Shown here one piece after another: positions 6,951-58,519 of a stretch of 64,000 bases of DNA. The DNA is taken from the NCBI GenBank assembly GCA_977020255.1, contig CDROCS010000817.1, positions 434,001-498,000 on the forward strand, given 5' to 3'. Both the position numbers and the translations under genes were made by a program. Within the stretch, counting starts at the first letter, position 1; every line of letters starts with the position of its first letter. The stretch comes from Obrimoposthia wandeli (Eukaryota). Under the pieces are notes generated by a model. That model made no database searches. It was not told the DNA's origin and saw only the letters and a program-made list of their open reading frames with translations.

Positions 6951-7221
6951 TCCTAAAGTTACTTTGGATTCAAGATATATTTCTTCGAGAAGTCGTTCAG
7001 ATAAATCATTTCTCGATGGAATATGTGAGTAGGTAGAAGGATGGAGTCTAAGCCACTTGACCCCCCCTCCCGCCTCCCCCTAAAGGGTGTCACACCATAA
7101 GGGTGTCTTGCCACACCATAAGGGTATATGTTGCCTCACCTCCGGTGAGGCAACATATACTCTTATGGTGTGACACCCTTTAGGGGGAGGCGGGAGGGGA
7201 GGGGAGGGGAAGTGGTACTTA

Positions 7222-7630
7222 AAGGGTCAAGTGGCTTAGTCTCCACCCTTCTTTTTGAGATATACCACTATGAAAGGGTCAAGTGGCTTAGTCTCCACCC
7301 TTCTTTTTGTGATATACCACTATGAAAGGGTCAAGTGGCTTAGTCTCCACCCTTCTTTTTGTGATATACCACTATGAAAGGGTCAAGTGGCTTAGTCTCC
7401 ACCCTTCTTTTTGTGATATACCACTATGAAAGGATCAAGTGGCTTAGTCTCCACCCTTCTTTTTGTGATCTAGTCTCCACCCTTCTTTTTGTGATATACC
7501 ACTATGAAAGGATCAAGTGGCTTAGTCTCCACCCTTCTTTTTGTGGTCTAGTCTCCACCCTTCTTTTTGGCTAACTACTAATTCAAAGGATCAAGTGGCT
7601 TAGTCTCCACCCTTCTTTTTTGTGACTAGT
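7222..7630. repeat. Subterminal 53-bp tandem repeat (mirrored at ~14420-14730)
   Basis: GAAAGGGTCAAGTGGCTTAGTCTCCACCCTTCTTTTTGTGATATACCACTAT recurs at 53-bp spacing, with truncated variants. Confidence 0.9.
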
Positions 7631-8159
7631 CCATAATGAAAATTTAGGATAAAGTTCACTCTTATCAGTTAAGAAATGTGGTTTTTAACACACACATACA
7701 CTATTTTATGTGAAATTTAAACTAAAGTTCACTCTTATCAGTTAATGAATGTATTACGTAATCACACACATACTATTTTATGTGAAATTTAGATCAAAGT
7801 TTTTCCTAGGCTTACACATTTATAGAATTATGATAAAATTTCTTTAAATAACTTCAATTATATATTAAAATAAAAAATAAAATAAGAAAGAAGTCAGAGA
7901 ATAATACAAAATTAAACACATTTATTATGTAATTTCATAATATCATCTTCAAACTTAAGTGAATAACATTTACAAAGTAAGAAAGTCCATTCTTTATACA
8001 TTCTTTTCGTTTCAACGACTAAGTTACAACGAAATTAATAGAAAATTAGTAAAAATATTAATTTATTTGAATATTTGAATGAGAGTTTGAATAAATGAGA
8101 GGTAGAATGAATGTAAATGAATAAAATTATGCATGCAAGTATGAATGTCATTTACAAGT

Positions 8160-10030
8160 AAGAGTCTTAGCAAGTGAATGTAATTTTAAAATAAGAGTGT
8201 CGATAGTTTGATTGAATGCAAGTGTAATTTAGACTATAAGTAAATTAAAATAGAGTTTTCGTTGAATAAATTATAGTTAGATTCAATGCAAGTATGAATG
8301 CAAGTGAATGATAGTATGAATTTCAATACAAGTAAGTGTCTTAGCAAGTGAATGTAATTTTAAAAATAAGAGTGTCGATAGTTTGATTGAATGCAAGTGT
8401 AATTTAGACTATAAGTAAATTAAAATAGAGTTTACGTTGAATAAATTATAGTTAGACTGAATGCAAGTATGAATGCAAGTGAATGATAGTTTGAATTTCA
8501 ATACAAGTAAGTGTCTTAGCAAGTGAATGTAATTTTAAAAATAAGAGTGTCGATAGTTTGATTGAATGCAAGTGTAATTTAGACTATAAGTAAATTAAAA
8601 TAGAGTTTTCGTTGAATAAATTATAGTTAGATTGAATGCAAGTATGAATGCAAGTGATTGATAGTATGAATGTCAATACAAGTAAGTGTCTTAGCAAGTG
8701 AATGTAATTTAAAAATAAGAGTGTCGATAGTTAGATTGAATGCAAGTGTAATTTAGACTATAAGTAAATTAAAATAGAATTTTCGTTGAATAAATTATAG
8801 TTAGATTGAATGCGAGTATGAATGCAAGTGATTGTTAGTATGAATGTCAATACAAGTAAGTGTCTTAGCAAGAGAATGTAGTTTTAAAAATAAGAGTGTC
8901 GATAGTTTGATTGAATGCAAGTGTAATTTAGACTATAAGTAAATTAAAATAGAGTTTTCGTTGAATAAATTATAGTTAGATTGAATGCAAGTATGAATGC
9001 AAGTGAATGATAGTATGAATTTCAATACAAGTAAGTGTCTTAGCAAGTGAATGTAATTTTAAAAATAAGAGTGTCGATAGTTTGATTGAATGCAAGTGTA
9101 ATTTAGACTATAAGTAAATTAAAATAGAGTTTTCGTTGAATAAATTATAGTTAGATTGAATGCAAGTATGAATGCAAGTGAATGATAGTTTGAATTTTCA
9201 ATACAATTAAGTGTCTTAGCAAGTGAATGTAATTTAAAAATAAGAGTGTCGATAGTTAGATTGAATGCAAGTGTAATTTAGACTATAAGTAAATTAAAAT
9301 AGAATTTTCGTTGAATAAATTATAGTTAGATTGAATGCAAGTATGAATGCAAGTGAATGATAGTATGAATTTCAATACAAGTATGTGTCTTAGCAAGTGA
9401 ATGTAGTTTTAAAAATAAGAGTGTCGATAGTTTGATTGAATGCAAGTGTAATTTAGACTATAAGTAAATTAAAATAGAGTTTTCGTTGAATAAATTATAG
9501 TTAGATTGAATGCAAGTATGAATGCAAGTGATTGATAGTATGAATGTCAATACAAGTAAGTGTCTTAGCAAGAGAATGTAATTTAAAAATAAGAGTGTCG
9601 ATAGTTAGATTGAATGCAAGTGTAATTTAGACTATAAGTAAATTAAAATAGAATTTTCGTTGAATAAATTATAGTTAGATTGAATGCGAGTATGAATGCA
9701 TGTGATTGATAGTATGAATTTCAATACAAGTAAGTGTCTTAGCAAGTGAATGTAATTTAAAAATAAGAGTGTCGATAGTTTGATTGAATGCAAGTGTAAT
9801 TTAGACTATAAGTAAATTAAAATAGAGTTTTCGTTGAATAAATTATAGTTAGATTGAATGCAAGTATGAATGCAAGTGAATGATAGTATGAATTTCAATA
9901 CAAGTAAGTGTCTTAGCAAGTGAATGTAGTTTTAAAAATAAGAGTGTCGATAGTTTGATTGAATGCAAGTGTAATTTAGACTATAAGTAAATTAAAATAG
10001 AGTTTTCGTTGAATAAATTATAGTTAGATT
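8160..10030. repeat. 175-bp satellite-like tandem array, about 11 units (left arm)
   Basis: TAAATTAAAATAGAG recurs at 8241, 8416, 8591, 8765, 8940 and onward at 174-175-bp spacing. Confidence 0.93.
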
Positions 10031-11229
10031 GAATGTAAATGAATACAAGTATACATTCAAGTGAATGCAAATACGAGTAAGAGTTTCAGCAAGTAAATAT
10101 AAAACTATGAATGAGTGACAGTGAAAATAAGAGTGTCGATAGTTTGATTGAATGAGAGTGTAATTTAGACTAGAAATAAATTAAAATAGAGATTTAGTAT
10201 GAATAAAGTTATGTTAAGTTACAGTTAGATTAATAACAAGTAAGCAACTATAAGTAAGCAGTGATATTGAAGTATGTTAAAAATTAGAACGACTAAGTTA
10301 TGGCAAGATTAATAGAAAACAACACCAAATTTGATAGTATGAATGAAAATTAGTAAAATATTAATGTATTTGAATGTATTTGAAAGATAGTTTGAATAAA
10401 TTACAGTTAGATTGAATGCAAATGAATGCAAGTATGATTGAATGCAGGGTCAAGTACAAGTAAGAAAGAATACGCAATATGCAAGTACGAATGCCAATTA
10501 TGAATGAAAATTAGTAAATATAATAATGAATTTGAATAATTAAAATGTCTTATCTCGTTTGATAAAATTCCTTAATTGAAATATTTTAAAATAATTAGTT
10601 TAATTTAAATTCTTTATTTTTAAATAACTTGATTATACAATTATATTCGTAAATATAATTAAAATTATCATTATTCGTTTCTCTTTTTTAACTATTCGAA
10701 ACTGTTTTTATATATATACAAATTTAGTAAATTAACTCAACAACAATTTTTTTTTATTAATTACTTGATATTTTTGCCATTGTCTTATTAATATAATATG
10801 AATATTCAATTTATTTCTTCAAAAATTCATTTTATATGTTAAATAATATTCTTTATCACATTATTGTGATTTTTATCAAGTGATTTTAACCTTAAACTAT
10901 AAAAATATTTTAATTATAAAGTTAGTAGCTGTACCCCGCCCCCTGCATATAACATAAATTTCAAATATAAAGTACTATTAAGTTTATTATTTCGACATTG
11001 TGGTAAGTAATTTTGGTATTAATTGTTTTTAAACTAGATTAACTTCGTATAACCTCATTTTTTTTATCTTAAACTAAAATATATTTTAATATCCTTTTAT
11101 TATATTAATTTATTTTGCTCAAGTATTTTTAAACATTTCAATGTTATATAATAGTTTAATAAAAGTTAATCATTGAATACAAGAACACAAATTCTAATAA
11201 CTTAAAACGTATTAAAGTGAATAAATGCA

Positions 11230-12230
11230 TAAATATATTATGTTTACAAGTAAATTTATAGTAAACGACAGTAAACTATGAATTACTTTTTATGTAATGA
11301 AATATTACAGTATTAACTTACAATATATTAAATTGAAAATATGCAAATTATATTATGTTTACAAGTCAATTTATTGATCAAATCATTAAAATTATGATTA
11401 ATAAGTAAATTTCTTGAAGTTTTGGTTGTAAATTATATTAAAGTAAAAACTTACAACATTTTAAACTGAATATATACAACAACAAATAAATATTGTAGTT
11501 TACAAGTAAATTACTTGAAGTTTTTGTTGTAAAATTATATTAAAGTAATAACTTACAACATATAAATTGAAAATATACCAAAATAAATTATGTTTACAAG
11601 TCTATTTATTGTACAAAACATTAAACTTATGTTTAATAAGTAAACTACTTGAAGTTTTTTGTTGAAAATTATAATAAAGTAATAACTTACAACATATTAA
11701 AGTGAATATATGCATAAATATATTATGTTTACAAGTCAATTTATTGTAAACGATAGTAAACTATCAATTACTTTTTTATATAATGTAATATTATAGTAAT
11801 AACTTACAATATATTAAATTGAAAATATGCAAATTATATTATGTTTACAAGTCAATTTATTGATCAAATCATTAATATTATGATTAATAAGTAAACTACT
11901 TAAAGTTTTTGTTGAAAATTATATTAAAGTAATAACTTACAACATTTTAAACTGAATATATACAACAACAAATAAATATTGTAGTTTACAAGTAAATTAC
12001 TTGAAGTTTTTGTTGTAAATTATATTAAAGTAATAACTTACAACATATTAAATTGAAAATATATCAAAATAAATTATGTTTACAAGTCAATTTATTGTAC
12101 AAAACATTAAACTTATGTTTAATAAGTAAACTACTTGAAGTTTTTGTTGAAAATTATATTAAAGTAATAACTTACAACATTTTAAACTAAATATATACAA
12201 CAACAAATAAATATTGTAGTTTACAAGTAA
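11230..12230. repeat. Degenerate ~120-bp tandem repeat in the central spacer, with ~486-bp higher-order repeat
   Basis: TATTATGTTTACAAGTCAATTTATTG-like and AACTTACAACAT motifs recur; a longer block repeats at ~11349 and ~11835. Confidence 0.75.
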
Positions 12231-13249
12231 ATTTTCGAATGTCTAGTAAACAAAATTAAATAACTCGAAAAAACATTTACTATTCGAAATAATAAACTTA
12301 ATAGTACTTTATATTTGAAATTTATGTTATATGCAGTGGGCGGGGTACAGCTACTAACTTTATAATTAAAATATTTTTATAGTTTAAGGTTAAAATCACT
12401 TGATAAAAACCACAATAATGTGATAAAGAATATTATTTAACATATAAAATGAATTTTTGAAGAAATAAATTGAATATTCATATTATATTAATAAGACAAT
12501 GGCAAAAATATCAAGTAATTAAAAAAAATTGTTGTTGAGTTAATTTACTAAATTTGTATATATATATAAAAACAGTTTCGAATAGTTAAAAAGAGAAACG
12601 AATAATGATAATTTTAATTATATTTACGAATATAATTGTATAATCAAGTTATTTAAAAATAAAGAATTTAAATTAAACTAATTATTTTAAAATATTTCAA
12701 TTAAGGAATTTTATCAAACGAGATAAGACATTTTAATTATTCAAATTCATTATTATATTTACTAATTTTCATTCATAATTGGCATTCGTACTTGCATATT
12801 GCGTATTCTTTCTTACTTGTACTTGACCCTGCATTCAATCATACTTGCATTCATTTGCATTCAATCTAACTGTAATTTATTCAAACTATCTTTCAAATAC
12901 ATTCAAATATATTAATATTTTACTAATTTTCATTCATACTATCAAATTTGGTGTTGTTTTCTATTAATCTTGCCATAACTTAGTCGTTCTAATTTTTTAA
13001 CATACTTCAATATCACTGCTTCCTATAGTTGCTTACTTGTTATTAATCTAACTGTAACTTAACATAACTTTATTCATACTAAAACTCTATTTTAATTTAT
13101 TTCTAGTCTAAATTACACTCTCATTCAATCAAACTATCGACACTCTTATTTTCACTGTCACTCATTCATAGTTTTATATTTACTTGCTGAAACTCTTACT
13201 CGTATTTGCATTCACTTGAATGTATACTTGTATTCATTTACATTCAATC

Positions 13250-13900
13250 TAACTATAATTTATTCAACGAAAACTCTATTTTAATTTACTTATAGTCTAA
13301 ATTACACTTGCATTCAATCAAACTCTCGACACTCTTATTTTTTAAATTACATTCACTTGCTAAGACACTTACTTGTATTGAAATTCATACTAGCATTCAC
13401 TTGCATTCATACTTGCATTCAATCTAACTATAATTTATTCAACGAAAACTCTATTTTAATTTACTTATAGTCTAAATTACACTTGCATTCAATCAAACTA
13501 TCGACACTCTTATTTTTAAATTACATTCACTTGCTAAGACACTTACTTGTATTGAAATTCATACTATCAATCACTTGCATTCATACTCGCATTCAATCTA
13601 ACTATAATTTATTCAACGAAAACTCTATTTTAATTTACTTATAGTCTAAATTACACTTGCATTCAATCAAACTCTCGACACTCTTATTTTTAAAATTACA
13701 TTCACTTGCTAAGACACTTACTTGTATTGAAATTCATACTATCATTCACTTGCATTCATACTTGCATTCAATCTAACTATAATTTATTCAACGAAAACTC
13801 TATTTTAATTTACTTATAGTCTAAATTACACTTGCATTCAATCAAACTATCGACACTCTTATTTTAAAATTACATTCACTTGCTAAGACTCTTACTTGTA
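13250..13900. repeat. Inverted copy of the 175-bp array, about 4 units (right arm)
   Basis: Reverse complement of the 8160-10030 unit. Confidence 0.9.
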
Positions 13901-15292
13901 AATGACATTCATACTTGCATGCATAATTTTATTCATTTACATTCATTCTACCTCTCATTTATTCAAACTCTCATTCAAATATTCAAATAAATTAATATTT
14001 TTAATAATTTTCTATTAATTCCGTTGTAACTTAGTCGTTGAAACGAAAAGAATGTATAAAGAATGGACTTTCTTACTTTGTAAATGTTATTCACTTAAGT
14101 TTGAAGATGATATTATGAAATTACATAATAAATGTGTTTAATTTTGTATTATTCTCTGACTTCTTTCTTATTTTATTTTTTATTTTAATATATAATTGAA
14201 GTTATTTAAAGAAATTTTATCATAATTCTATAAATGTGTAAGCCTAGGAAAAACTTTGATCTAAATTTCACATAAAATAGTATGTGTGTGATTACGTAAT
14301 ACATTCATTAACTGATAAGAGTGAACTTTAGTTTAAATTTCACATAAATAGTGTATGTGTGTGTTAAAAACCACATTTCTTAACTGATAAGAGTGAACTT
14401 TATCCTAAATTTTCATTATGGACTATATCACAAAAAAGAAGGGTGGAGACTAAGCCACTTGATCCTTTGAATTAGTAGTTAGCCAAAAAGAAAGGTGGAG
14501 ACTAGACCACAAAAAGAAGGGTGGAGACTAGATCACAAAAAGAAGGGTGGAGACTAGATCACAAAAAGAAGGGTGGAGACTAGATCACAAAAAGAAGGGT
14601 GGAGACTAAGCCACTTGATCCTTTCATAGTGGTATATCACAAAAAGAAGGGTGGAGACTAAGCCACTTGACCCTTTCATAGTGGTATATCTCAAAAAGAA
14701 GGGTGGAGACTAAGCCACTTGACCCTTTAATCTATGGACGACCACAGTGGTATATCAAAGAAGGATGGAGTCTAAGCCACTTGACCCCCCCTATCCTTCC
14801 CCTCCCCTCCCCTCCCGCCTCCCCCTAAAGGGTGTGACACCCTTTAGGGGGGGGTCAAGTGGCTTAGACTCCATCCTTCTACCTACTTATGTGCTACGAA
14901 TGATAGTCTATCAATTTCAAATATGGCCTTAAAATCCTCCGACAATGTAGTATCAATAGGATAATTTTGCATAGACCCAACGAGCTATTCTTTTTTAATA
15001 TCTGTAATATCTTGATTTGATATTGAATCAAACCATGTTGACGTTGATACCATGAACTTCTCTGGTGTTGCAAGAGAAGTAGAACTATTGCTTCAGGCTC
15101 TTTTTCTGAATTCATTTGAAATTTCTTTAAATTTTCAGCCAGTCGAGTTGAACTTGCTGCTGTTAGTTCCTTTATGCAAGATTTTAAACAAATATTATAT
15201 TCTTTCAATTAAAAAAATCGTTTTTTCGTTTTTTATTGTTGTTTTTTTCATCACTAATCCACCATGAAGTAATTTTATTTATAATAATTTAC

Positions 15293-26499: not shown

Positions 26500-28789
26500 C
26501 TGAGTTCGAATTGCTGACAGCCCCACGATCAGAATCAAACTTTTGTTACAACAAATTCACTTCCTGAAAAAAGACGATCCATCCGCTGAGACATCTATGG
26601 AAAGGCACAGTGGCGACCTGGATCCCTAACCTTCAGTTAACTCAACCAATACGACAAAAGTGTCGTAGTACCCTCTTCACTTTCTTTCGGTTAATAAAGA
26701 AGCAACACGTCCCACTCCATTCGTTCCCTAAACAGTGTTAACTATCTTTTCCAAAGGCCATGCTCCACGTTCATTCTTTTTATCCAAAACCACGTCTCCT
26801 CTTTCCAACAGACTTTTCTCTTCAAATCTCCTCCATCTCGCGCGCAACCTTCCTGATAAATCTCTATAAAATTCAGTGGCTCAAATTAAAAAATGATTTT
26901 GTGTCAAAGCTTCACACTCCTTCTTTTCCATTTACTTTCTACCAATGGGCCATGAATTCACCAACTGCTCAACCTCTTTTAAATTGTCACCAACTCCTCG
27001 TAGGTCACATCTGATTCCAAAGCCCGAGCAATTATCTTTGCTAACTTTACTCCTACACTAGCCACCATTAACTGTAATCTCGGTATACTTATAACTTTTA
27101 ATGCTGAACCTTCGAATTGGCAGCAACAAATTCTAAACGACTTATAACATTTGTCTGTCTTAAATAAGTTACCGAACCATATGCATCTTTATACGCGTCG
27201 GAAAACACATGTATTTCCTCGCCTAGGCCCATTTTTCTAATTAAAGAATGTGGTATATTAACTGTTTCTAACTTTGCACAGCCTTCGATCCACTTTCTCG
27301 CATTCCTATCAATACTTTCTAAAACTTCTTTGTCCCATCCTACTCCCGAAGTCCAAAGCTCTTGCATTATTATCTTGGCTCGCATCAACAAAACACATTG
27401 GATCAAAAACATGAAATAACAAACTTACGAAATTTATTTTCGTTATCTTTTCAACCTTTGTTAACTCAATATTAAACTTAAATACATCTTCGTTACACGG
27501 CCAATTCATGCTGCCAAGTTCTTGTGATCTTCAATCTTTATCTTTGTGCTCTGTCCTCTTCAGATATTTCCGCCAACACGGATTTGCTAGTCGTTGCCCA
27601 TTTTCAGGTTACCCTTCTTGCTCTTTCCATAATTCTTTTAATTCTATCGTCAGGCCCAGTCCAGACTATCATCCATATAGGAAAACTTTAGCACTGTATC
27701 CGCAGTCCTCTGAAAAACTTCCTGATTAATTTCTGCATGATACCAACTGAGCCAAGAACGGTGATGTGTGAAATCCAAAAACTAAACGACAATACTCACA
27801 AGTACTAACATCTTCCATATCGTTACCCCATAAAAATCGGTGTCACAAACGATCTACTGATTTCAATGACACCTGTAAATACATTTCCGATATTTCACAA
27901 ACCATGCCATTTCAAACTTACGAAAACGCAAATATATAACAAATAAATCTTCTTGAAGTTTTTGTCCATCTTATATCTTGTCATTTAAAAAACTCCTTGG
28001 CACTTTTCGGTAGCGTCAAATACTATCCGAACTTTCATTGTTTCTTTATCTCTTCTTACTACTGGAAAATGCGGAATCAGCCACTTTGTATATTTTCTTT
28101 TTTCTACATTGATTTTTCATACATAACCTTTTTTGATTTGATCTTCTATTGTTGAGATGTATTCCCTTTTCAATTGTAGATTTATATTAAGTCTACGTTC
28201 AATTCCATATAACCGAGTTCTAGTCATTTCTTCATTAGTCAGGATGTTTTTCGAATCCTGCTTCCATGGTATTCTTACCATATATCTTCCATTTTTCAAC
28301 TAATTGTCTTATCCATGACATTCTTGTCATTAATCTACTGTTGTTCAAATAGGGAAATAAGTTCTTCTATTTACCAAAACTTTCTCACTTACTCTTCCAA
28401 TCGAGTGTCAGCATGAAATGTCTTTATAAAATTAGTAATGAAAATCTAATTGAATTTAAATTAGTCCGCTTTGGTTCCACCATCTTCCACTTAATCACTT
28501 GGAAATTCCCAGACACTTCCTTTACAGCCAACGCGTTAATCTTGTCTTTAACTTTATATCTATGTTCAAGATCGTTATATCTATAGGCATTGCGTTCATT
28601 CCCTCAGTCCATCCACCAATAACACTGACTGGAACCCAAGTAGATTTCCATTCAACTGCCATTCGCGCGCAATATCAAGACTTACATAACTTGTGGTGCT
28701 TGCGTCATCTAGTAGAGCATTTACCTGATGAGCTCTTTCTCTACTTTCTAATATAATTGGCACCGTCCACAACGTCATCACTTCTTGTC
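26500..28789 (-). pseudogene. BEL/Pao pol relic (protease, RT, RNase H); host of LTR element A
   Basis: ALLDDASTTSYVS protease; GRYMVRIPWKQD; IPHFPV..KVRIVFDA; FDPMCFV..RAKIIMQELWTSGVGWD; IHVFSDAYKDAYGSVTYLR; many stops. Confidence 0.88.
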
Positions 28790-28793
28790 GTAT

Positions 28794-30657
28794 TGTTGGG
28801 GTTTCTATACGAAACTTGGTACAGATCCTCTTATGTGCGGAGGGCCCCAACGTGAGTTCGATTAGAAGCAGGTCTTAAAGTTGGTCGTGGCCTACTTAGT
28901 GTTATGGTTGCCTAATCTCTTGTACTATCTGAAGGTATTTGATTTGATGTCTCTTATTCTGAAGGGTGCAAAACAACTTGTTCTAATGTAGGAAATTGTT
29001 TATTTGTAATTCACGTAACTAACACAACAATACGTTTATGTACGTATTTCTAAAAAGTATGATAAAATTCCTAGGACTTCTGTAAGTCTCTACAAGAAGT
29101 GGGGATGAACCACGTATCGATTTTACGTTCAGGTGATTAAGCTTTTAGGTTTATTCTTCTTACTTAGGTTGGTTAATCTATAACGCAACTCTCTTAAATT
29201 TCTTCGCTCCTACTTCTTATATCTAGATAAAGTTTCTTGATTCCTTAACTCTATCTGCTGTGTGTTTGACCCCGAATTGTCCACTGTGAACAATGGGTCT
29301 CCTAAAAACCTAATTGTCAAAGATGACAATGAAAACTTACTCCGAATTGTCAACTACGGACAATGAATGAACCGAATTGTCAGCTAGGGACAATGAGTCT
29401 TACCGAATTGTCAACTAGGGACAATGAGTATTTGTCCGAATTGTCAACTAGGGACAATGAATGAACCGAATTGTCAGCTAGGGACAATGAGTCTTACGGA
29501 AAAAAGTCTGGTATAATTCCTAATTGTCGCTGGGGACAATGAATAAAATAGATGATCTTAATTGCCAACTAGGGACAATGATTAGGTTAATGAGTCAGCA
29601 ATCCTAATTGCCAGCTAGGGGCAATGAATGTGTTTACTAGGTTAAAATTTAGAATTACCAACAAGGGGTAATGAAGGTATCCTAATTGCCAACTAGGGGC
29701 AATGAATGCTCTAGTCGGTTGGCTTACCAATACGCTGCGACTAGTGCGGCTTCCGGTGCAGGATCCGTATGGAGCGCTTGCGAGTCTGGCGGAACCGTCC
29801 TCAAAGTCAACTGTAGCTTTCGACTTCTTCCGCGCTTTTCACTTCTTTCGAACCTTTCAATCTGGATACCGACTCGACTTTCAACACTGATTCGATATTC
29901 AAATATTGGTTCAACTTCAATTTCGGATTCGATATTTCAATATTGGTTCAACTTCAATTACGGATTCGATATTACAATTTGGTTCAACTTCAATTACGGA
30001 TTCGATATTACAATTTGGTTCAACTTCAATTACGGATTCGATATTACAATTTGGTTCAACTTCAATTACGGATTCGATATTACAATTTGGTTCAACTTTT
30101 CACACTGATCTAAATAATTTTAACTCTACCTATTCCCAATCACCACTTACCGATTCGTGGTCGAGGGGATTGTCTTCTGTCTAATTGCTTCTTCTTTTTT
30201 CCAGTCGACTCTGTAGTTGATTCCGTATTTGTGTTTTCTGTTTTGGCGATCTGCCTTATATAGAGGCAAGTCTGTCAATCAAATCGACAGCTGCTTAATG
30301 GTCGCGGGAATTCACTTGAATTCTTCTGGAATATATCTGAAATTTATTAACCTTATTGCACTTAAAATGTGCTTACCTTTTCCTGATTGACGTCTCTTAA
30401 TTGACGTTTCTAATTGATCCTTTTTTCTGTAATTAATTCTAAATTGTTCGCTTTTTGGGTTAATTAATTCAACTTATATACATCTCACATTATACACGAC
30501 CTTCGTGGTCCTCCTAATTTTTACCCTAACTTCCACTAATTTCAATTCTAAAACTAAAATTAATATTTAATTTAATTTTCAACCTTGCTTTCAAGGATTT
30601 TTATTTTAGTATTTAATCGACTAAAATATTTAAATTTCTTAATTCTCAAACCTAACA
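28794..30657 (-). repeat. 3' LTR of element A (1864 bp)
   Basis: Direct repeat of 37571-39435; by eye only two substitutions and one 1-bp indel; contains a degenerate ~30-bp array (29270-29700) and a 36-bp array (~29905-30100). Confidence 0.96.
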
Positions 30658-30876
30658 TACCTCGGGGGTTCCAAAAAAGTTACGTCCCCGGAACGTATCG
30701 ATTTTACTTATACAAGCCTCTGGCTGTTGATTTTAGGTTCATCCCTACAAAATCAATCATTCAACTTCAACAAACATGCCCAAAACAAAATTTCTCAAAA
30801 TCCCGGTTTTTAGTGGGAAACATAATGTATAATTTGGAGCAAGTCTCAAACCATACATTATTACTTATACACAAAA

Positions 30877-33834
30877 CTACATGAGTAAACAAGGATTAGG
30901 AAGGAAAGAAGGGAGGAAAGGATTCAACGTTGTCAATTGTCGTAAGTTAGGTCTATTGTAATTGTCGGCTGGTTCCGACTGGCCAGGTAACGTTATCCAT
31001 AGATTATTCGTCATCTGATATTCAGGTGCCATTATATTAGAGCAGCTGATTTCTTTAGTTGGAGTGTCTTTTGGAAGTAACATTCTCGTGATTGGTTCAA
31101 CAAAAAGATCTTTTAAATTATACGTTACTGCCAATTCACTCGTACATCGATCTGTTTTCCTCAACTGTACCTCTACTTTATTACACTTGTAAGTATACAA
31201 TACTTCTCCCATGGTTTTAGCAAATACTCCTTCATCCAAGGGTAATAATGGTGCTACCATGTCTGGATTCGTAATAGCTAATGCTAACTTTGTTCTTACG
31301 ATCTCTTTGTTTAGCTGGCAATCTCTTTCGATCATCATCCGATATAACTGTTCCATTTGCATCAATCCTTTATGATAATAGAAATCAATTTTATTATTAA
31401 AATACGTGTGTAGCTGCATATCTTTAGGTTTTAGCTTGGTTTCTGCCAATGCTATTGCTTCTTTGGACAAAACTATTCCTGGATAGTTTGTAGTACTAAC
31501 AGTCATTCCGCATCGCGCTTTGTTTTTCTTTTTAATAAATATCAATCCTTCTTCTATTGATGTTGCCATTAATAGTGTAGGTGTTTTTGTCATTGGAATT
31601 GGTCTTGTTTCATTGAGCAATCCCTTTCCAACTTTATTATACAGGAATCCTTCTCCATCTTTATTATACAGGAATCCTTTTATTTTTTTAAAGCTAATAT
31701 CTTTCAAAAATACTAAAGAGCATTGCTTCGGATTTATGTTATACACAATTGTGGATTCGCCTGTGAAACAAGATGTATCTGTCATTTTACATTCTGGATA
31801 CTTCATCATTAGTTGTGTCTTTTTATCAAAATTGGCGGTCCATGTTTTTAATTCGATTTTGTAAGTTACATCCATTACTAACTCGGCTACTTTGGTTCCA
31901 CGCACGTTTTTTGTTTCTCCGTCACAAGATCCATCGGCCCATCGTTGTCCGACTCTCGTGACTGTTTCGTATCGTCTCACTCCAATTTTTACATCAGGTT
32001 TGTAATTCTTGTCTACCTCTATCGTTCCCGTTCGAAATGCGTCTTCGCAATCTCTCGGCAAAACCTTATGTGCCTTGTACGGTGTGGTAGGTGTGATTTC
32101 TGACATAAAACTTCTATGGCCACAATAGAATTCGTGATAACTTGAATGGATTGAACATTCTTTCACTTCTACTTGTACTTTATCAACATCCTGATACACA
32201 AAGTAGTTTTCAACACCTTTAACTTCTAGTTTTGACGGTTGTGACTCTGGACAGTCTTCGCTGTCAAGCAGTGAATACTTTTGTCCCATCTTTGGTATGC
32301 TACAGTCGTATGCTATCAATCCTGATGCCTGTTGCATTCCCATAAACATTACTAACATCATCATCATCATTGTTGTGGACATATTTGGTTGATTGTTTCT
32401 CTCTTTCGGACGGTATTGTTTATTTTCCTTTTGACGATTCTCATGACATTGTTCGTCATCGTCTTCATTCATTTCCACAATGGTTTTAGCGTAGTCACTT
32501 AATTTTGCCCAACCTCCGTTTTCGTCAATTCGTCTCTGTAATACATTCTCTATCAAGTACATCGCTTCATTTATTCCTTGTTTGACTTCGTGAGGTTGGC
32601 TCGTTCGTTCCGTCAATTGGAAACATAGATATGTGATCGCTGTAATTAACTTTTTATTTGTAGTCTGGTTTCCACATAGTCTCGCTAAAACTTCACCGTC
32701 ATAAAATCTATCTATCGATGCATGGTATACATGATTCGCAGTCATTCTCTTTACTGCAGACATCTGTGATCTGACTGCTTTAGTCAAATTGTCTGTTATA
32801 TCGGTTGTTTCATCTCTGTACATTTTAAACAACTTCGGCTTCACTTGCCTGAGAATTCCCGTAAGTATATCTTTACTACTTGGAGTTTCCGAATTCATAT
32901 CACCTCTGATATCTTCATTCCTCTCTGCACTATACTGCTCTAATGACGCTGCTAACTGTCCAATACTTAGATGTCTCTCTTCATCAGTTTGTGGTGCAGT
33001 TAGAACATTTCGTAATATACTTTCGCCTTTTCTAGGTCTTCCAGGTCCTCTTCGAAAATACTGATACTCAGCTTGATTCTCTCCTGGATCATACGTTTCA
33101 CCATTATACTGTATATCTTGACTTGGTCCTTCTTCATGGCCAATCTCTTCATTTTGTCGCATCATTTGCTCTGCTTGTCTATCTTTGTATGCAGCATGCC
33201 AAATTGGTGAGTCCAAATCTACAATCTCGGAGACTTCGTCTTCTCCTACTAGTTGGGTTACGGTTTCGTTTTGTCGCACTTGGTTAGCTGTATCCGTGAC
33301 TTCATCTTGTCTGATTGGAATTATATCTGGTTCTGGTGGCACCTCGACCACTGGAGTTGTCAACTCATTTTCTAAATTCATGTCTTGTAATTCAGCTACG
33401 TACGGTTCTGGTGTGGATGTCTTGTTCCAAGCTTCAGCTACATCATTATCTCCGCTTTCGCTTGAACTGTCTAAAATTTCTATAGGCGTTTTTATCATTT
33501 CTAACGCAGAATTCAATATCTCGGTTAATCCTTCATTATCTACTAACTCTTGACGTCCTACAGTGATGACATCAATTTTTTCCTCTAATTCATTTCCTAT
33601 CGGATATCCACACTCGACTGGTACGTCCTCATCATCTAGTGATCTCCCTTTATAATGGAACAACATATTCATTCCATCAATTTCGAGTTTCTCGGCCAAT
33701 TTTTTTCGAATCGTTTTCATTGTTTGATACACGTTAGGTTTTTCATGTATTATCTGTCCGGAAATTAATCGAAGTGAAATTTTCATCGTTCCTTTTTGGT
33801 TTGATTTCTGTACATAACGACCATAACCTTTCAA
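30877..33834 (-). CDS. Multidomain ORF: ubiquitin-like domain, acidic linker, AT-hook, Bcl-2-like domain, internal signal sequence, truncated class III fusion glycoprotein
   Basis: 985 open codons, first ATG at 33786. Ubl MKISLRLISGQ..LFHYKGRSLDDED; RRGPGRPRK; LQRRIDENGGWAKLSDY; MMMMMLVMFMGMQQASG then LIAYDC..FYCGHRS..DGSCDG..MGEVLYTYKC..LFVEPITRML, a Cys and motif pattern like chuvirus-type G proteins. Confidence 0.88.
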   Translation of the reverse strand: MKGYGRYVQKSNQKGTMKISLRLISGQIIHEKPNVYQTMKTIRKKLAEKLEIDGMNMLFHYKGRSLDDEDVPVECGYPIGNELEEKIDVITVGRQELVDNEGLTEILNSALEMIKTPIEILDSSSESGDNDVAEAWNKTSTPEPYVAELQDMNLENELTTPVVEVPPEPDIIPIRQDEVTDTANQVRQNETVTQLVGEDEVSEIVDLDSPIWHAAYKDRQAEQMMRQNEEIGHEEGPSQDIQYNGETYDPGENQAEYQYFRRGPGRPRKGESILRNVLTAPQTDEERHLSIGQLAASLEQYSAERNEDIRGDMNSETPSSKDILTGILRQVKPKLFKMYRDETTDITDNLTKAVRSQMSAVKRMTANHVYHASIDRFYDGEVLARLCGNQTTNKKLITAITYLCFQLTERTSQPHEVKQGINEAMYLIENVLQRRIDENGGWAKLSDYAKTIVEMNEDDDEQCHENRQKENKQYRPKERNNQPNMSTTMMMMMLVMFMGMQQASGLIAYDCSIPKMGQKYSLLDSEDCPESQPSKLEVKGVENYFVYQDVDKVQVEVKECSIHSSYHEFYCGHRSFMSEITPTTPYKAHKVLPRDCEDAFRTGTIEVDKNYKPDVKIGVRRYETVTRVGQRWADGSCDGETKNVRGTKVAELVMDVTYKIELKTWTANFDKKTQLMMKYPECKMTDTSCFTGESTIVYNINPKQCSLVFLKDISFKKIKGFLYNKDGEGFLYNKVGKGLLNETRPIPMTKTPTLLMATSIEEGLIFIKKKNKARCGMTVSTTNYPGIVLSKEAIALAETKLKPKDMQLHTYFNNKIDFYYHKGLMQMEQLYRMMIERDCQLNKEIVRTKLALAITNPDMVAPLLPLDEGVFAKTMGEVLYTYKCNKVEVQLRKTDRCTSELAVTYNLKDLFVEPITRMLLPKDTPTKEISCSNIMAPEYQMTNNLWITLPGQSEPADNYNRPNLRQLTTLNPFLPSFLPNPCLLM

Positions 33835-33849
33835 TAATCCTCGGGGTAC

Positions 33850-35919
33850 TTATTTGTAACCCAAGTTATCATGGCTATGTTTAACCAATTCTGCTCGCAC
33901 TTCTTCCAATCGGTGCACTTTAATTGTTTGCAATTTGGCCAAAACTTCTGGAGCTTCACTCGTTTCATCTAACGGTTGATTCAACGTTTCCTTAGCTTCA
34001 CTAATTATCTTTTTTACATTTTCCATACTCATAGCATTTCTCGCTGCTTCTACATGATCAGTCATAGGTTGTGCGTTACACGTTTTCTCTATTGGTGTCT
34101 CATACGCTTCTAATATTCTATTCATTAAATCGTTCATCTCTTCTCTCGAGTGTAGACTTTTCTCTTGTTTCGACAACGTAGATGAATTCGCCATCTTTGT
34201 ATGTGGTGAATCTTTAATTATTCCCAACATTCGTTCAAATTTACTATCACTATCTTCAAAATCTATTTCGCGTCGAAGCTCGGTTTCGCGATTCCTATCA
34301 CTGTCATCGCTTACATAACTAAAATTTCCTTTCGGTTTCGGCGAACTCTCACGACTACTTGTCTTGTCGACATTATTATTATTATATCTACCAGAATTAT
34401 TATATCTCTCAGCTCCTTGCTGTCCTACGTAATTATTGTATCTCTCAGCTCCTTGCTGTCTGTCTGCATAGTTATTGTATCTACCTGGTGACTGTTGTCT
34501 ATCTGTATACTGATTATTCAGTCTCCATGGCTGTGGAGTATATCCACCACCTCTATTCCATGGCGGAGGTGAATTATATCCTCTATAATTATTTCCAAAA
34601 TTATTATTACCGAAATTATTATTTCCAAATCTGTTAGTTCCGAACTCTTTGTTTCTCGTACAATCTCTCGAATAGTGACCCATTTGTTTACACGTGTAAC
34701 ACATTATTCTCCCTCGAATATCTATCTTATTTTGTTCATCTTCGAACTGCACTCGACGACTATTCTGTCTATTATCATAGCGCCCTTTAAAATCATTTCT
34801 TCGGAAATTCGATTCAAAACCGCTTCCTCGATTATTGAATCTTCCGTCGCTATTTCCTGTATTATTTCCAAATCGAGAGTCACTTCGCTCTCCTCTGTTG
34901 GTGTTATAATTCCTATCGTCTCCTCTCCAAGGTTGGCGATTTCCTGAATTATCTCTATTAAATCTATTCCTGGAATCATCTCTATTTCTACTCCACGAAT
35001 CATTATTATTTCTACCTCTTGAATCATCTCGATTCCTGTTCCAAGACTCACTATTATTTCTACCTCTGGAATCATCTCGATTCCTACTTCGGAAATTATC
35101 TCTATTTCCGTTACTGGATTCATCTACTTTTTCAAACTTATTTTGTCCATAATTTCGATTCTGAAAATTACTCGGTTCTGTTTTATTCACAAAGACCTTT
35201 GTCTTATCGTCGTCAGCTGCAGTCATTGCGTAAATTGCCAATGCTGCATTATTTTTTATATTTTTCTCAATCTCTCTCGCCTTTCGTACGGCGTTATCAA
35301 AATCATTTGTATCTGATACTGCTAATAACACTTTAATATCCTTTTTCAATCCTCCTCTAAATATATCTAACAAAACCTCTGCCATTTCATTTTGGTTTCG
35401 GTCATTTTCCGCTACTTGTGCTTCTTGAGGTACAGGAATACCGTCCTGATTTCTCATTATTCTTCTTGGGTACGCTCTTGCGGCCAAGGTTCTCAAAACA
35501 TACGCGTATTCATTCACGCCTTCATCATGTTTCTGTTTCCGTTCTCTCATGAGTCGCTTATTTACTTTGGCTAAGTCTCCTAATACCAATTTTCCAATAA
35601 AAGCATTTTCTAACGTTGGCCAATCTATGCGTTCTGCTTCTGTCAAATGTTTATACACTTCAAGTGCTAATCCGGTTAAATGTGCCTGTACTCGGACACA
35701 TTTTTCTTTATCGTTCCATCCTTGAACATCCGCACAACTCGAATATTCTGCGAGGAAGTCACAAATACTTTCCTCATCTCCTTTAAACTTTGTAATCTGC
35801 AATGATCCTGAAAAATTGGGTCTCAACGTCGCATTTAAAGCTTGTGCCAACTGCTCGGCATTCATTTCACCTACATTATTTCCTGCATTAATATCTGGTG
35901 GAGCTCCTTGGTGAGCCAT
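33850..35919 (-). CDS. gag: Ty3/Gypsy-type Gag, 689 aa from the first ATG
   Basis: KFKGDEESICDFLAEYSSCADVQGWNDKEK capsid-like region, RKQKHDEGVNEY, RDDSRGRN repeats, CCHC knuckle CYTCKQMGHYSRDC at 34660-34701. Confidence 0.92.
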   Translation of the reverse strand: MAHQGAPPDINAGNNVGEMNAEQLAQALNATLRPNFSGSLQITKFKGDEESICDFLAEYSSCADVQGWNDKEKCVRVQAHLTGLALEVYKHLTEAERIDWPTLENAFIGKLVLGDLAKVNKRLMRERKQKHDEGVNEYAYVLRTLAARAYPRRIMRNQDGIPVPQEAQVAENDRNQNEMAEVLLDIFRGGLKKDIKVLLAVSDTNDFDNAVRKAREIEKNIKNNAALAIYAMTAADDDKTKVFVNKTEPSNFQNRNYGQNKFEKVDESSNGNRDNFRSRNRDDSRGRNNSESWNRNRDDSRGRNNNDSWSRNRDDSRNRFNRDNSGNRQPWRGDDRNYNTNRGERSDSRFGNNTGNSDGRFNNRGSGFESNFRRNDFKGRYDNRQNSRRVQFEDEQNKIDIRGRIMCYTCKQMGHYSRDCTRNKEFGTNRFGNNNFGNNNFGNNYRGYNSPPPWNRGGGYTPQPWRLNNQYTDRQQSPGRYNNYADRQQGAERYNNYVGQQGAERYNNSGRYNNNNVDKTSSRESSPKPKGNFSYVSDDSDRNRETELRREIDFEDSDSKFERMLGIIKDSPHTKMANSSTLSKQEKSLHSREEMNDLMNRILEAYETPIEKTCNAQPMTDHVEAARNAMSMENVKKIISEAKETLNQPLDETSEAPEVLAKLQTIKVHRLEEVRAELVKHSHDNLGYK

Positions 35920-36454
35920 ATCTTCAACTATATCGTCTTCAACTATTCCTTCAATATTATTTACTTGAACTTCTTCAATCACTACTGGATTGGCAATTTC
36001 AATTTCTTCTGGGTTTTGAACTTCAAGATTATCAATTTCTTCTGGGTTTATGTCACCAAATAACTCAGTCAGCTCAAAACTGTCGGTTGAAACTGCTGAT
36101 TGATCAACGTCTCTTTCTGATACGTTTTCTTCGACTCTAGTCTTTTCTGTTACTTTGTTATCTGTTTGGGGAACCTGTTCAATTCGGTCAACTTTATTAT
36201 TATTTGTCTCTTCCTTGGGAATCTGGCTTTGTCTTCTAGTATTAAACGTGGGTCCTTTTCTATTATCCGTTGTCTTATCAATTATGTATTCGTTTACGAT
36301 ATCAATTTACTTATTATTTTTTATCTTATTTCACAATTCTTATTTTACGATTTTTTATCTCTTTAATTAGTTCGAGGACAGAGTCTCCCGACTTAACTTA
36401 TTCAATTAATTACTTCGAGTATCAATCCACTCGATTCTCACTTATCAAATTTAC

Positions 36455-37543: not shown

Positions 37544-37562
37544 ATCCTCACTCGGGGCACCA
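37544..37562 (-). other. Primer-binding site complementary to the 3' end of elongator tRNA-Met
   Basis: TGGTGCCCCGAGTGAGGAT, 8 nt after the LTR end; the eukaryotic elongator tRNA-Met 3' end (..ATCCTCACACGGGGCACCA) matches at all but one position. Confidence 0.85.
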
Positions 37563-37570
37563 CTTTAATA

Positions 37571-39435
37571 TGTTGGGGTTTCTATACGAAACTTGGTACA
37601 GATCCTCTTATGTGCGGAGGGCCCCAACGTGAGTTCGATTAGAAGCAGGTCTTAAAGTTGGTCGTGGCCTACTTAGTGTTATGGTTGCCTAATCTCTTGT
37701 ACTATCTGAAGGTATTTGATTTGATGTCTCTTATTCTGAAGGGTGCAAAACAACTTGTTCTAATGTAGGAAATTGTTTATTTGTAATTCACGTAACTAAC
37801 ACAACAATACGTTTATGTACGTATTTCTAAAAAGTATGATAAAATTCCTAGGACTTCTGTAAGTCTCTACAAGAAGTGGGGATGAACCACGTATCGATTT
37901 TACGTTCAGGTGATTAAGCTTTTAGGTTTATTCTTCTTACTTAGGTTGGTTAATCTATAACGCAACTCTCTTAAATTTCTTCGCTCCTACTTCTTATATC
38001 TAGATAAAGTTTCTTGATTCCTTAACTCTATCTGCTGTGTGTTTGACCCCGAATTGTCCACTGTGAACAATGGGTCTCCTAAAAACCTAATTGTCAAAGA
38101 TGACAATGAAAACTTACTCCGAATTGTCAACTACGGACAATGAATGAACCGAATTGTCAGCTAGGGACAATGAGTCTTACCGAATTGTCAACTAAGGACA
38201 ATGAGTATTTGTCCGAATTGTCAACTAGGGACAATGAATGAACCGAATTGTCAGCTAGGGACAATGAGTCTTACGGGAAAAAAGTCTGGTATAATTCCTA
38301 ATTGTCGCTGGGGACAATGAATAAAATAGATGATCTTAATTGCCAACTAGGGACAATGATTAGGTTAATGAGTCAGCAATCCTAATTGCCAGCTAGGGGC
38401 AATGAATGTGTTTACTAGGTTAAAATTTAGAATTACCAACAAGGGGTAATGAAGGTATCCTAATTGCCAACTAGGGGCAATGAATGCTCTAGTCGGTTGG
38501 CTTACCAATACGCTGCGACTAGTGCGGCTTCCGATGCAGGATCCGTATGGAGCGCTTGCGAGTCTGGCGGAACCGTCCTCAAAGTCAACTGTAGCTTTCG
38601 ACTTCTTCCGCGCTTTTCACTTCTTTCGAACCTTTCAATCTGGATACCGACTCGACTTTCAACACTGATTCGATATTCAAATATTGGTTCAACTTCAATT
38701 TCGGATTCGATATTTCAATATTGGTTCAACTTCAATTACGGATTCGATATTACAATTTGGTTCAACTTCAATTACGGATTCGATATTACAATTTGGTTCA
38801 ACTTCAATTACGGATTCGATATTACAATTTGGTTCAACTTCAATTACGGATTCGATATTACAATTTGGTTCAACTTTTCACACTGATCTAAATAATTTTA
38901 ACTCTACCTATTCCCAATCACCACTTACCGATTCGTGGTCGAGGGGATTGTCTTCTGTCTAATTGCTTCTTCTTTTTTCCAGTCGACTCTGTAGTTGATT
39001 CCGTATTTGTGTTTTCTGTTTTGGCGATCTGCCTTATATAGAGGCAAGTCTGTCAATCAAATCGACAGCTGCTTAATGGTCGCGGGAATTCACTTGAATT
39101 CTTCTGGAATATATCTGAAATTTATTAACCTTATTGCACTTAAAATGTGCTTACCTTTTCCTGATTGACGTCTCTTAATTGACGTTTCTAATTGATCCTT
39201 TTTTCTGTAATTAATTCTAAATTGTTCGCTTTTTGGGTTAATTAATTCAACTTATATACATCTCACATTATACACGACCTTCGTGGTCCTCCTAATTTTT
39301 ACCCTAACTTCCACTAATTTCAATTCTAAAACTAAAATTAATATTTAATTTAATTTTCAACCTTGCTTTCAAGGATTTTTATTTTAGTATTTAATCGACT
39401 AAAATATTTAAATTTCTTAATTCTCAAACCTAACA
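37571..39435 (-). repeat. 5' LTR of element A (1865 bp)
   Basis: Sense strand starts TGTTAGG and ends CCCCAACA, followed by the PBS. Confidence 0.96.
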
Positions 39436-39461
39436 GTATCTTGTTACTTTTTTAATACTTG

Positions 39462-49100: not shown

Positions 49101-49341
49101 ACAAAAGGTAAATTTAATTCCTCTTTAAAATTGAAAAATACCCCGATGAACATAATACAAAATAACTTGATTTGTTTATATCTTTAATAATGTTTTGAGA
49201 GCTAGTATTTTAGAATTGATTAAAGCAGAAGAATTCTAGAATAAGGAACAAAGATCGGTCAGTGGCTATAGTTGTCAGAAACAGTATAATGATCTTAACA
49301 AAGGCCAATTCAAACCTCCTATAAGTGTGGTCAGTACTCAC

Positions 49342-49692
49342 CTTTGACATTAACCTTCACGGCTGCGAAGTCCTCCTTTCCATCAGATTTCAGCTGGCAT
49401 ACATAAATTCCGATGTCTGAGCTCTTGAGAGAGCGGATGAAGAGAGTGTCATTTGTCTTCTTGCTCTCTTTACCTGACGTAATCTCGATGCGATCGTCGT
49501 TGTCGGCTGTGATGATGGTTGCGTTGTTGAAAGTGAGATTTCCGGGCTTGGTGGGGTCATTGAATCCGGAAGAGAGCTTCATCCAGACAATCTCCGTCAG
49601 ATTGGGATAGGCATCGTACAGACAGGTGATCCGCATTGGGTCACCTTCCAGACCAAGACGAGGCTTTTGAAATTTCTTAGCCAGCGGAACCA
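49342..49692 (-). CDS. Basigin-family gene: membrane-proximal Ig domain exon
   Basis: AG and GTGAGT boundaries, phase 1-1; EGDPMRITC..IVWMK..LFIRSLKSSDIGIYVCQL is a canonical Ig pattern; splices in frame to give KVNVK-D-RWAAL. Confidence 0.9.
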
Positions 49693-51105
49693 CTGACGAG
49701 ATTAAACAAATTTAGGAATCACTTATAAAATATTAAAGAAACATGTGATTTACACATTTTATAACCTTTCTTGTTTGAGGATAATTCACTATATCAGGGC
49801 TGGGGAACTGTTTTGTTTTAAAGGCCCCATTGACAATGCTCATTACTCAAACGACCACTTGCGATAGTTTTGAATATTTTTATACTCATTTTACAATCAT
49901 TGGCTACTTAACTACATTTATAATTTACAAGAAAATATATATAAAGATAGACAATTTATCGTTCAATTACGTTTTGCTCATCTAATGAGATTGCTTTTGT
50001 TGAGCCTCCATCGGGTTGTTTTGAGGTTGAAAAGCTAGCTTCTAAGTAATGTTATGCTTATCAAAATCATGAATCTCATCATATTCATTTATCAATGAGT
50101 CTATAACTGTTTGGTATCTTTTAAAATATTCACAAATATATTCATTATTTTCTTTCAATACTTTTGCTAGCTAGGGAAAATAATTTTCTCAATTATTTGG
50201 TTTGCAAACAATGATTTAAATAAAGTTAACTTCTTTCTAAATTCCTGAAGTTTTAATTTAATGATTTATGTTTACCCTACATCGAAATATATAACTCATT
50301 TTATTTTGACATAATATCACACAGAATTGCAGCATCTTGAAAGAAATTAACATTTGATCATTCATAATTCTGATAATTTCTCACGTAGACAAAATTTTGA
50401 CAAAGACTTGGCCTTGTGATAACCAGCGCACTTTCGAATGATAGGGAAAATCTACACTGACAATCTCATCATCCAACGTGAGCATGTCTCAAACGGGCGG
50501 TGCTTCAGCATTTGCTCGGATAAAGTTTACTATACCAACAACCTTATGTAAAGTGTCATTAATAATGACGTGTTAGAACAGAGATTTTGCTGATGTAAAA
50601 TACAATGAAATTAAATAAGAGCATTCTCATTTAAGAGTTTTTTTAGATATGCAACGAATCCTTCATTCTTTCCAGTATAGATGGAACACCATCTGCGCAC
50701 ACACGAACTAAATCTGTGAAATTCAGTCCTATTTCATGGGATTTCTCTTCGAAGTTGTTGAAAACATCAATTCCATATGTCCTTCCCTTTAGGGTGGCTA
50801 AAGCAAGTAATTCTTTCAATTTAGAGTATAAGAAAATAATTTAAATACACCAAAAAGAGATGTTTAAATTTATTATAATTCCCAAAAGCGAAATATGTAA
50901 TTTTTAAATGTTTCTATTTTTAGAAGATTTAGATAATTAGGCGTACAAATTATCAAAGAAATACAAAGTGATTTATTATTATGATTAAAGATTATAAAGA
51001 TAAATTTAGTCGTAAAAGATTACAGTAAAGCCAATAATCATAATAAAAATAATACACTACTAATCTCTAATTTCAGCATAACATAATATCAACCAAGGCA
51101 CTCAC

Positions 51106-57232: not shown

Positions 57233-57969
57233 AGGATTCCTAACTCGTATATTTTGATGTTTTTTCCTTTTGAAATTCTTTCTAGATAATAAAAATTTCT
57301 CAGAAGAAGATTCATTCTAAAATAAAGAGACTTTTTAAAAAATAATGTTTGTAAAAAAATACATATAAGATACTGTTAGGTTTAGGAATTAAAAAATTAA
57401 AATAATAAATTGATTTTATAGTAAAATGAAAATCCTTGAAAGCAAGGTTAGAATTAAATAAATTTTAAAATCAAAATTAACATTATTTGAAGTTTAAATA
57501 AGATTAAATGTTAGAAGACCACGAAGGTCGTGTATGATGCGTTGTGTATATAAGTTAATTTTAAAGGAAACAAAAGTGCAAACTAATAAGCAAAAAATAA
57601 TCAGAAAAAGAAATTAATTAAGAAAGGAAAAGAAGTGATTAATAAAGAAAAACCACGTCAGCAGAAAGAAGATTGACAGCAAGAAACGTCAGCAAGAGTA
57701 AGCACATTTTTAGTGCAATTGATTTACCTAAATTGAAATTTAGCAGCTGTCGCCAATTCCTAAATTGCTCAGGAAATTGTTTGCTGAGTGACAACAACAC
57801 AATCCATTAAGCAGCTGTTGCCAGACTATATAAGTCTTTAGGAAAACCTATTACACACACACAGAAAAGCAATTTTAGCCGAGACGAGGATTGAGTCAGC
57901 GGAAAAAACTCTGGTGAGCGCTCCTAATTTTGAGCCTACATTAATTGCTAGAATTACAGAATTGGAAAC

Positions 57970-58450: not shown

Positions 58451-58519
58451 CCAAATAAACAGACGCTGCAACTTTGGAATTGAGATAGGTGAGAGGAGAG
58501 TAATAGGCTAGGGTTTTAA

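Follow-up and report, generated by a model that had tools for sequence, protein, structure and literature searches.

A divergent Bcl-2-like domain under purifying selection in the polyprotein of a Burro-like LTR element from a probable marine triclad

The element copy in the window

The window analysed here, a stretch of 64,000 nucleotides of contig CDROCS010000817.1, contains a long terminal repeat (LTR) retroelement, referred to as copy A, that encodes a domain resembling the Bcl-2 family. The earlier note on this DNA had reported a Bcl-2-like segment carried by an LTR retroelement, and this was confirmed: the domain comprises 131 residues (residues 326-456 of a 990-codon frame at 30877-33849, minus strand) and lies between two LTRs, differing by two mismatches and one gap, that are flanked by a target-site duplication (TSD). 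Listed in the 5' to 3' direction of the element, the features of copy A are the following.

37571-39435, minus: 5' LTR, 1,865 bp, TG...CA, tandem arrays inside
37544-37562, minus: primer binding site (PBS), 19-nt complement of the host tRNA-Met(CAT) 3' terminus, CCA included, 8 nt off the LTR
33850-36306, minus: gag frame, 818 codons, one CCHC knuckle at 34657-34701, stop at its end in copy A
33553-33786, minus: ubiquitin-like domain, PF00240, E 0.0055, 16.9 bits, below the cut-off
33028-33054, minus: motif in the sequence that we take to be AT-hook-like
32482-32874, minus: Bcl-2-like domain, BH1-position TNKK at 32650-32661, BH2-like LQRRIDENGGW at 32509-32541
32320-32382, minus: hydrophobic segment resembling a signal peptide, after the Bcl-2-like domain and before Env, placed by eye, under the 1.6 hydropathy threshold
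30993-32319, minus: Env, chuvirus/Monjiviricetes-type fusion glycoprotein, PF24664, E 2.3e-61, 3' part lost in copy A
30984-30992, minus: deletion junction, internal loss of ~12.7 kb, ~9 nt of microhomology, matched once genome-wide
28794-30657, minus: 3' LTR, 1,864 bp, TG...CA, 4-bp TSD at 28790-28793 and 39436-39439

The deletion removed the end of env, the whole of pol and the parts encoding an inhibitor of apoptosis protein (IAP), a phosphatase and RING-H2 proteins. All 30 env-selected loci (30 of the 89 matches listed) diverge from copy A at one common point. In addition, the stop at the gag junction of copy A is absent from 52 of the 52 other copies covering this junction (59 were examined, 7 of which lack coverage there). 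Because the deletion junction is single-copy and the gag junction is open elsewhere, copy A represents a young, unique and broken derivative, and it is itself probably a dead passenger. These observations rule out both an amplified non-autonomous subfamily, as the deletion junction occurs once in the genome, and a programmed read-through of the stop between gag and the next frame.

Relation of the domain to Bcl-2

The top Pfam family of the window segment was Bcl-2 (PF00452; E 0.039, 14.7-14.9 bits), which matched all six aligned copies at E<=1, and an older, 84%-identical copy (L046) was matched at E 7.1e-4 and 20.5 bits over model positions 6-100. A genome-wide PF00452 search recovered L046 as well, as the last of 16 matches. 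When a profile of seven element copies was aligned with one of 12 flatworm Bcl-2 sequences (Schmidtea Bcl2-2 and 11 host loci, the other 4 of the 15 being near-duplicates and excluded), hhalign returned 62 collinear columns from BH1 to BH2 at the spacing of the family, with a score of 27.3 that was reached by none of 200 column shuffles (maximum 20.4; reversed control 14.8). Scored with the host Bcl-2 profile, all seven element sequences gave E-values between 6e-6 and 2e-3. The BH2 pattern of the Bcl-2 family is W-x4-GGW, and the GGW was kept in each of the 59 copies covered. The BH1 and BH2 placements of the earlier note agree with the profile alignments, and the NWGR that it had described as lacking is indeed replaced by TNKK or TSKK; the match to PF00452 is supported by the family rank and the consistency among copies but lies below the cut-off (see below). 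No hydrophobic anchor was found directly after BH2, the signal-like segment starting ~43 residues past the GGW. On the basis of the sequence comparisons the domain is probably homologous to Bcl-2, and we regard it as Bcl-2-like and not as a canonical member.

Further searches recovered no relatives. Among 1.84 billion representatives there was one match, a CUB-like repeat protein with a word of 21 residues in common, which was dismissed as chance. A region search among proteins of 1,734-4,950 aa gave 0 related sequences out of 229 candidates, and none of the 245 and 87 pattern matches in metagenome and viral contigs, respectively, was confirmed.

Selection on the domain

Against two old copies, at a dS of 1.3-1.4 that is close to saturation, the domain showed a ratio of nonsynonymous to synonymous substitution (dN/dS) of 0.05 and 0.06, the lowest among the segments scored, and within the 30 env-selected copies dN/dS was 0.06 for shared variants and 0.44 for singletons. 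The corresponding polymorphism ratio (pN/pS) among full copies, calculated from small counts between one reference and three to four other copies, was 0.03 for the Bcl-2-like domain, 0.02 for integrase, 0.06 for the ubiquitin-like domain and 0.10 for the phosphatase, and 0.18 for Env, 0.21 for reverse transcriptase (RT), 0.22 for the BIR and 0.40 for the RING. The Bcl-2-like domain is thus under strong purifying selection. It is constrained as tightly as integrase and therefore does something for the element, to the lineage of which it matters.

The full-length element, its copy number and a sister family

A full copy measures 23,577 bp from LTR to LTR (~23.6 kb), and open frames of 4,335, 5,220 and 5,478 codons were observed among the full copies; that copy A is a deletion derivative of such an element had been missed in the earlier note. 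Pfam annotation of one full polyprotein, together with the continuation of a second window copy (copy B, see below), gave the single-frame order Gag, ubiquitin-like, Bcl-2-like, Env, protease, BIR/RING (IAP), second protease, RT, RNase H, integrase and dual-specificity phosphatase. The ubiquitin-like and then the Bcl-2-like domain precede Env, both as weak matches, and the BIR (E 9e-13) and the IAP-type RING (E 3e-12) are located in the same frame and both exceed the cut-off. Env spans positions 4-632 of the PF24664 model in other copies. The phosphatase 3' of integrase (E 2e-36; residues ~3050-3177 of L091) has an intact HCxxGxxR and is followed by ~1,000 residues that match no Pfam family and include four hydrophobic segments (L092:1-2790). 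Directly after the polyprotein stop and on the same strand there are three small tandem RING-H2 open reading frames (ORFs) of ~105-120 aa (L089:6534-7969, minus), all over the zf-RING_2 cut-off and with 35-38% mutual identity, which were found, some of them broken, in 4 of the 4 full copies that reach this region (L081, L086, L089, L092).

The element is of the Ty3/Gypsy type, having the order protease-RT-RNase H-integrase, a Ty3-type RNase H, an H2C2 integrase, TG...CA LTRs, a tRNA PBS and a short TSD. A BEL/Pao element with a chuvirus glycoprotein, such as 'Anakin', was ruled out by the Ty3-type pol and the 4-bp TSD.

A 30-mer from the Bcl-2-like domain matched the genome 6,367 times and one from RT 6,800 times (two mismatches allowed; reversed controls gave 0), and the copy number is at least 6,367. 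In a protein search of the genome the best 150 of 10,898 candidates were scored, all of which were identical. At 23.6 kb each, the copies would make up 11-19% of the 1.35-Gb assembly, which is an upper-side figure because some copies are incomplete and the assembly includes bacterial contigs.

A sister Gypsy family (L080:233-8634), nested just 3' of the copy B integrase, encodes gag, env, a single protease and RT in one frame, in which no ubiquitin-like, Bcl-2-like or IAP module was found. It is 37% identical to the cargo-bearing family in Env and ~40% in RT, and it has a hydrophobic segment at the same position before Env. Given that the sister family lacks the cargo, the cargo was most likely added onto a pre-existing gag-env-pol chassis, where the IAP would most likely have been inserted between duplicated proteases, although the cargo may instead have been lost from the sister family.

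In copy A the linker between the ubiquitin-like domain and the AT-hook-like motif is acidic, and the C-terminal Gly-Gly was not seen in the ubiquitin-like domain. A canonical polypurine tract before the 3' LTR was found neither in copy A (30658-30672) nor in one full copy; a short CCCCGAGG word is present at this site and again at the gag junction (33838-33849). The tRNA-Met end complementary to the PBS has 53 matches in the genome, and ARAGORN predicted seven tRNA-Met genes in locus L139 and none in locus L138. The gene of the primer tRNA-Met is organised in tandem arrays at C2252:200-11858 (~284-bp period) and C2837:586194-598329.

Copy B and other features of the window

57374-59821, plus: 5' LTR region of copy B, an LTR variant with similar ends and different internal arrays
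60109-64000, plus: internal region of copy B, 94.8% identical to copy A, with stops of its own

The earlier note had described the part of the domain present in copy B as conserved, and the first 99 residues (63704-64000) are in fact identical to those of copy A, as are 100% of the remaining 34 tested residues just past the window end. Beyond the window copy B continues with env, IAP and pol.

A decayed BEL/Pao element (Peptidase_A17, E 1e-16) at 27101-27424 (minus) and ~28350-28790 adjoins copy A, which was probably inserted within it. A fragment at 6421-6752 is 87-93% like the end of the element LTR and possibly represents another LTR variant; arrays of 34/39 bp adjoin it at 4974-6268. The window further contains a large, foldback-like inverted structure at 7167-14841, in which AT-rich repeats are surrounded by tandem arrays of 52 and 175 bp, and a host-gene exon with an immunoglobulin domain at 49334-49711 (minus).

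The host

Mitochondrial-type COX1 was found on 8 contigs (3 examined) and reads under translation table 9, conserved Asn being encoded by AAA and conserved Ile by ATA; its best database matches were triclads at 73-75%, with nothing closer, and one of the Bcl-2 genes of the host shares 81% identity with Schmidtea Bcl2-2. In a COX1 tree of 23 rows the host falls within the triclads (93/95), where it groups with Miroplana, a marine triclad (84/93); this grouping has a long branch, and the tree includes no dugesiid. The mitochondrial gene order is nad1-cox1-cox3-nad4L-nad4-atp6-nad6-nad5-cob-cox2-nad3-nad2 (nad4L, nad6 and nad2 placed by eye) and departs from that of the Continenticola, where the order is conserved, as opposed to variable in the Maricola (PMC13059034, PMC9176356). 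Pieces ~97-99% identical to the element occur in metagenomes from marine or sediment samples (three studies; 27, 7 and 3 of 30 bins). The host is very probably a triclad and probably a marine one (Maricola). It has at least 15 Bcl-2-family loci (L031-L045, L129, L131), among them, on C723 and C147, Bax/Bak-like pairs that have BH3-like exons.

Near-whole mitochondrial genomes lie inside the large contigs C652, C109 and C2590 and five more, as nuclear mitochondrial insertions or chimeric joins. A second animal mitochondrion on C5352 is unrelated to that of the host and presumably molluscan. The assembly holds many bacterial contigs.

Comparison with known systems

As precedent the earlier note had named the Bcl-2 proteins of large DNA viruses, overlooking the BCL2-like motif that has been described in Burro, the closest precedent (PMC6431247). 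Burro1-4/GYPSM1 of Schmidtea mediterranea and a Burro-like element of Dugesia tigrina encode Gag, a ubiquitin/SUMO-like and a BCL2-like domain, an in-frame Env between gag and pol and a BIR, the BCL2-like motif being credited to Grohme 2018 (PMC6431247). Thousands of copies, one polyprotein of ~5,000 aa, a CCHC Gag and a triclad host are common to Burro and the element, as are the ubiquitin/SUMO-like and BCL2-like domains, the mononegavirus-like Env in frame between gag and pol, and the BIR (PMC6431247). In contrast, Burro exceeds 30 kb and has two or three knuckles, whereas the element measures 23.6 kb and has one; MATH/TRAF and ankyrin domains occur in S. mediterranea, while in D. tigrina MATH lies outside ORF1, so that this domain is not universal (PMC6431247). 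Along one full element polyprotein no Pfam match to MATH or ankyrin was obtained at E<=0.5, and no Pfam match to the dUTPase-like region between protease and RT, for which the published Burro call used HHpred. The phosphatase after integrase, the two proteases around the IAP and the three RING-H2 ORFs are present in the element and are unnamed in the Burro account, as far as its relevant sections go (PMC6431247). The element is thus Burro-like by architecture, as compared with the description of Burro and not by RT sequence.

According to PMC13465017, in which Lee et al. (Dev Cell 2026) is cited, the BIR-RING protein of Burro1 (B-IAP) protects planarian stem cells in a host-transposon mutualism, and the range of Burro1 is given as Geoplanidae and Dugesiidae. 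With Burro1 the element shares a cargo of BIR plus RING, carried in both cases by a giant LTR element of planarians. The burro and apoptosis passages of that paper name the IAP as the active part and contain nothing on the Bcl-2-like domain, the term itself not having been searched. BURRO1 is piRNA-controlled (PMC8532177); transposons are not mentioned in the part of PMC11209288 at hand, nor Burro in that of the Dugesia genome preprint.

The viral Bcl-2 proteins KsBcl-2 and ORFV125 are, like the element domain, divergent and short, and their BH1 may be altered, but they retain the Gly-Arg that the element domain lacks (PMC9027176). They are stand-alone genes of herpes- and poxviruses, whereas the element domain is a polyprotein module without a canonical tail anchor. 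With the flatworm Bcl-2 proteins (the 15 host loci and Schmidtea Bcl2-2) it has the collinear BH1-BH2 and the GGW in common, though not the W/PGR-type BH1 and the BH2 Trp position that most host genes keep.

The core idea, a BCL2-like motif in this type of element, is already in print for Burro (PMC6431247). In the accessible parts of the Burro literature we found no report of the phosphatase, the RING-H2 trio, the proteases flanking the IAP or selection on the domain, some of which Grohme 2018 or Lee 2026 may already describe, nor any study of such an element in a marine triclad or of the Bcl-2-like domain by experiment. New here are the phosphatase and RING-H2 cargo, the doubled protease, the very high copy number, the probable marine host and the selection on the domain.

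Role of the domain

We give roughly even odds (about 0.5) to the explanation that the element has captured a Bcl-2-family domain, now far diverged, which acts as a survival or stress regulator and, as a polyprotein module, keeps the host cell alive or unalarmed during replication. Such a survival role is supported by the position of the domain between Gag/ubiquitin-like and Env, in the company of an intact-looking IAP, a phosphatase and RING-H2 ORFs, by the strong purifying selection, by the architecture shared with Burro, whose IAP reportedly protects stem cells, by the absence of the ubiquitin-like/Bcl-2-like/IAP block from the related gag-env-pol family, and by the presence in the host of Bcl-2-family genes and BH3-like exons. 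The element would make one giant polyprotein in which the Bcl-2-like domain is one module. The hydrophobic segment past the GGW may direct Env into the endoplasmic reticulum (ER), and the membrane segment of Env (residue ~1858) could bring the chain back to the cytosol for the proteases, IAP and pol. Cuts by signal peptidase and the element protease might then leave the Env signal segment as a tail anchor of the Bcl-2-like domain, which would face the cytosol at the ER and bind a host death or stress regulator, be it Bax/Bak-like, BH3-only or an ER/autophagy partner. In the binding groove NWGR would have given way to a rewired T[N/S]KK, and the action may lie upstream of the caspase block by the IAP.

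Several observations weigh against this explanation. The PF00452 cut-off of 31.4 bits was reached by no copy, and the hhalign probability was just 27%. Nearly all of the 60 copies have T[N/S]KK in place of the BH1 NWGR (Asn or Ser, Lys and Lys at the Trp, Gly and Arg positions in 59; one copy has Met at the Arg position), and Arg, Gln or His takes the place of the first BH2 Trp in every one of the 60. No Bcl-2 structure was found in a PDB sequence search at E<=10, the matches obtained (stathmin-like etc.) being dismissed as helical noise, and the neighbours in the ESM Atlas were phage hypothetical and integrase SAM-like clusters at low recognition, with no Bcl-2. None of the host Bcl-2 genes stands out as donor (best E 0.02 to the element profile). 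Furthermore, the scheme of topology and cleavage is based on reading by eye, and purifying selection proves a function for the element but not which function. The BH1 Gly and Arg are important for the interactions of the family and for BH3 binding (PMC9027176), and classical BH3 capture is doubtful because both residues have been replaced, in the window domain by Lys. Of the captured death regulator of the earlier note, what is supported is a divergent Bcl-2-like domain that an LTR element carries and keeps under selection, in full-length copies beside a clear IAP; its Bcl-2 fold and any anti-apoptotic activity are putative.

A rather unlikely explanation is that the domain keeps the Bcl-2 fold but now serves, in place of BH3 binding, as a scaffold against innate or stress signalling, as in the poxvirus proteins A46, A52, B14 and K7. 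The loss of the BH1 Gly/Arg and the BH2 Trp is fixed and the new residues are strongly selected, and the phosphatase and the RING-H2 ORFs alongside would fit such a role, but the BH1-BH2 spacing and GGW have been retained. Moreover, the altered BH1 of ORFV125 (SPGR) lowers BH3 binding but does not abolish it (PMC9027176). Somewhat less probable still is an unrelated helical domain with an NGGW by chance. The sub-threshold scores, the low hhalign probability and the lack of PDB or Atlas support point that way, and so does a weak Nipped-B_C match in 5 of 6 copies; they are countered by the match of the older copy, by the column shuffles and by the report of a BCL2-like motif at the same slot, from ubiquitin-like to Env, in Burro (PMC6431247). 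We consider it unlikely that the domain, though derived from Bcl-2, is a structural part of the element cycle, either a membrane tether from Gag to the Env signal or a processing spacer: it stands immediately before the signal-like segment, in that half of the polyprotein which contains Gag, and its constraint equals that of integrase, yet the sister family has no such domain there, so that the chassis can dispense with it. A decaying captured fragment without function would fit the broken window copy (stop before the domain frame, large deletion) but is refuted at the family level by dN/dS of 0.03-0.06 at three divergence depths.

It is possible, although we hold this tentatively, that a marine triclad harbours a Burro-type element that fills at least a tenth of its assembly and encodes a layered kit against death and stress (Bcl-2-like, IAP, ubiquitin-like, phosphatase and three RING-H2), comparable to that of a large DNA virus but packed into a single LTR element, with a lysine-lined, rewired groove and the Env signal peptide as anchor. 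If true, the capture of Bcl-2 and IAP would predate the split between marine and freshwater/land triclads, or the element would have crossed between them. The reported support of stem-cell survival by the Burro1 IAP is a rare case of transposon-host mutualism, and the adjoining Bcl-2-like module has so far, in the accessible literature, only been named. A defined domain of 131 residues with fixed BH1 and BH2 changes can now be tested, and the cargo-free sister family in the same genome permits a direct comparison of the benefit of the cargo (6,400 or more copies). The probable marine host would push the origin of this cargo earlier than the reported range.

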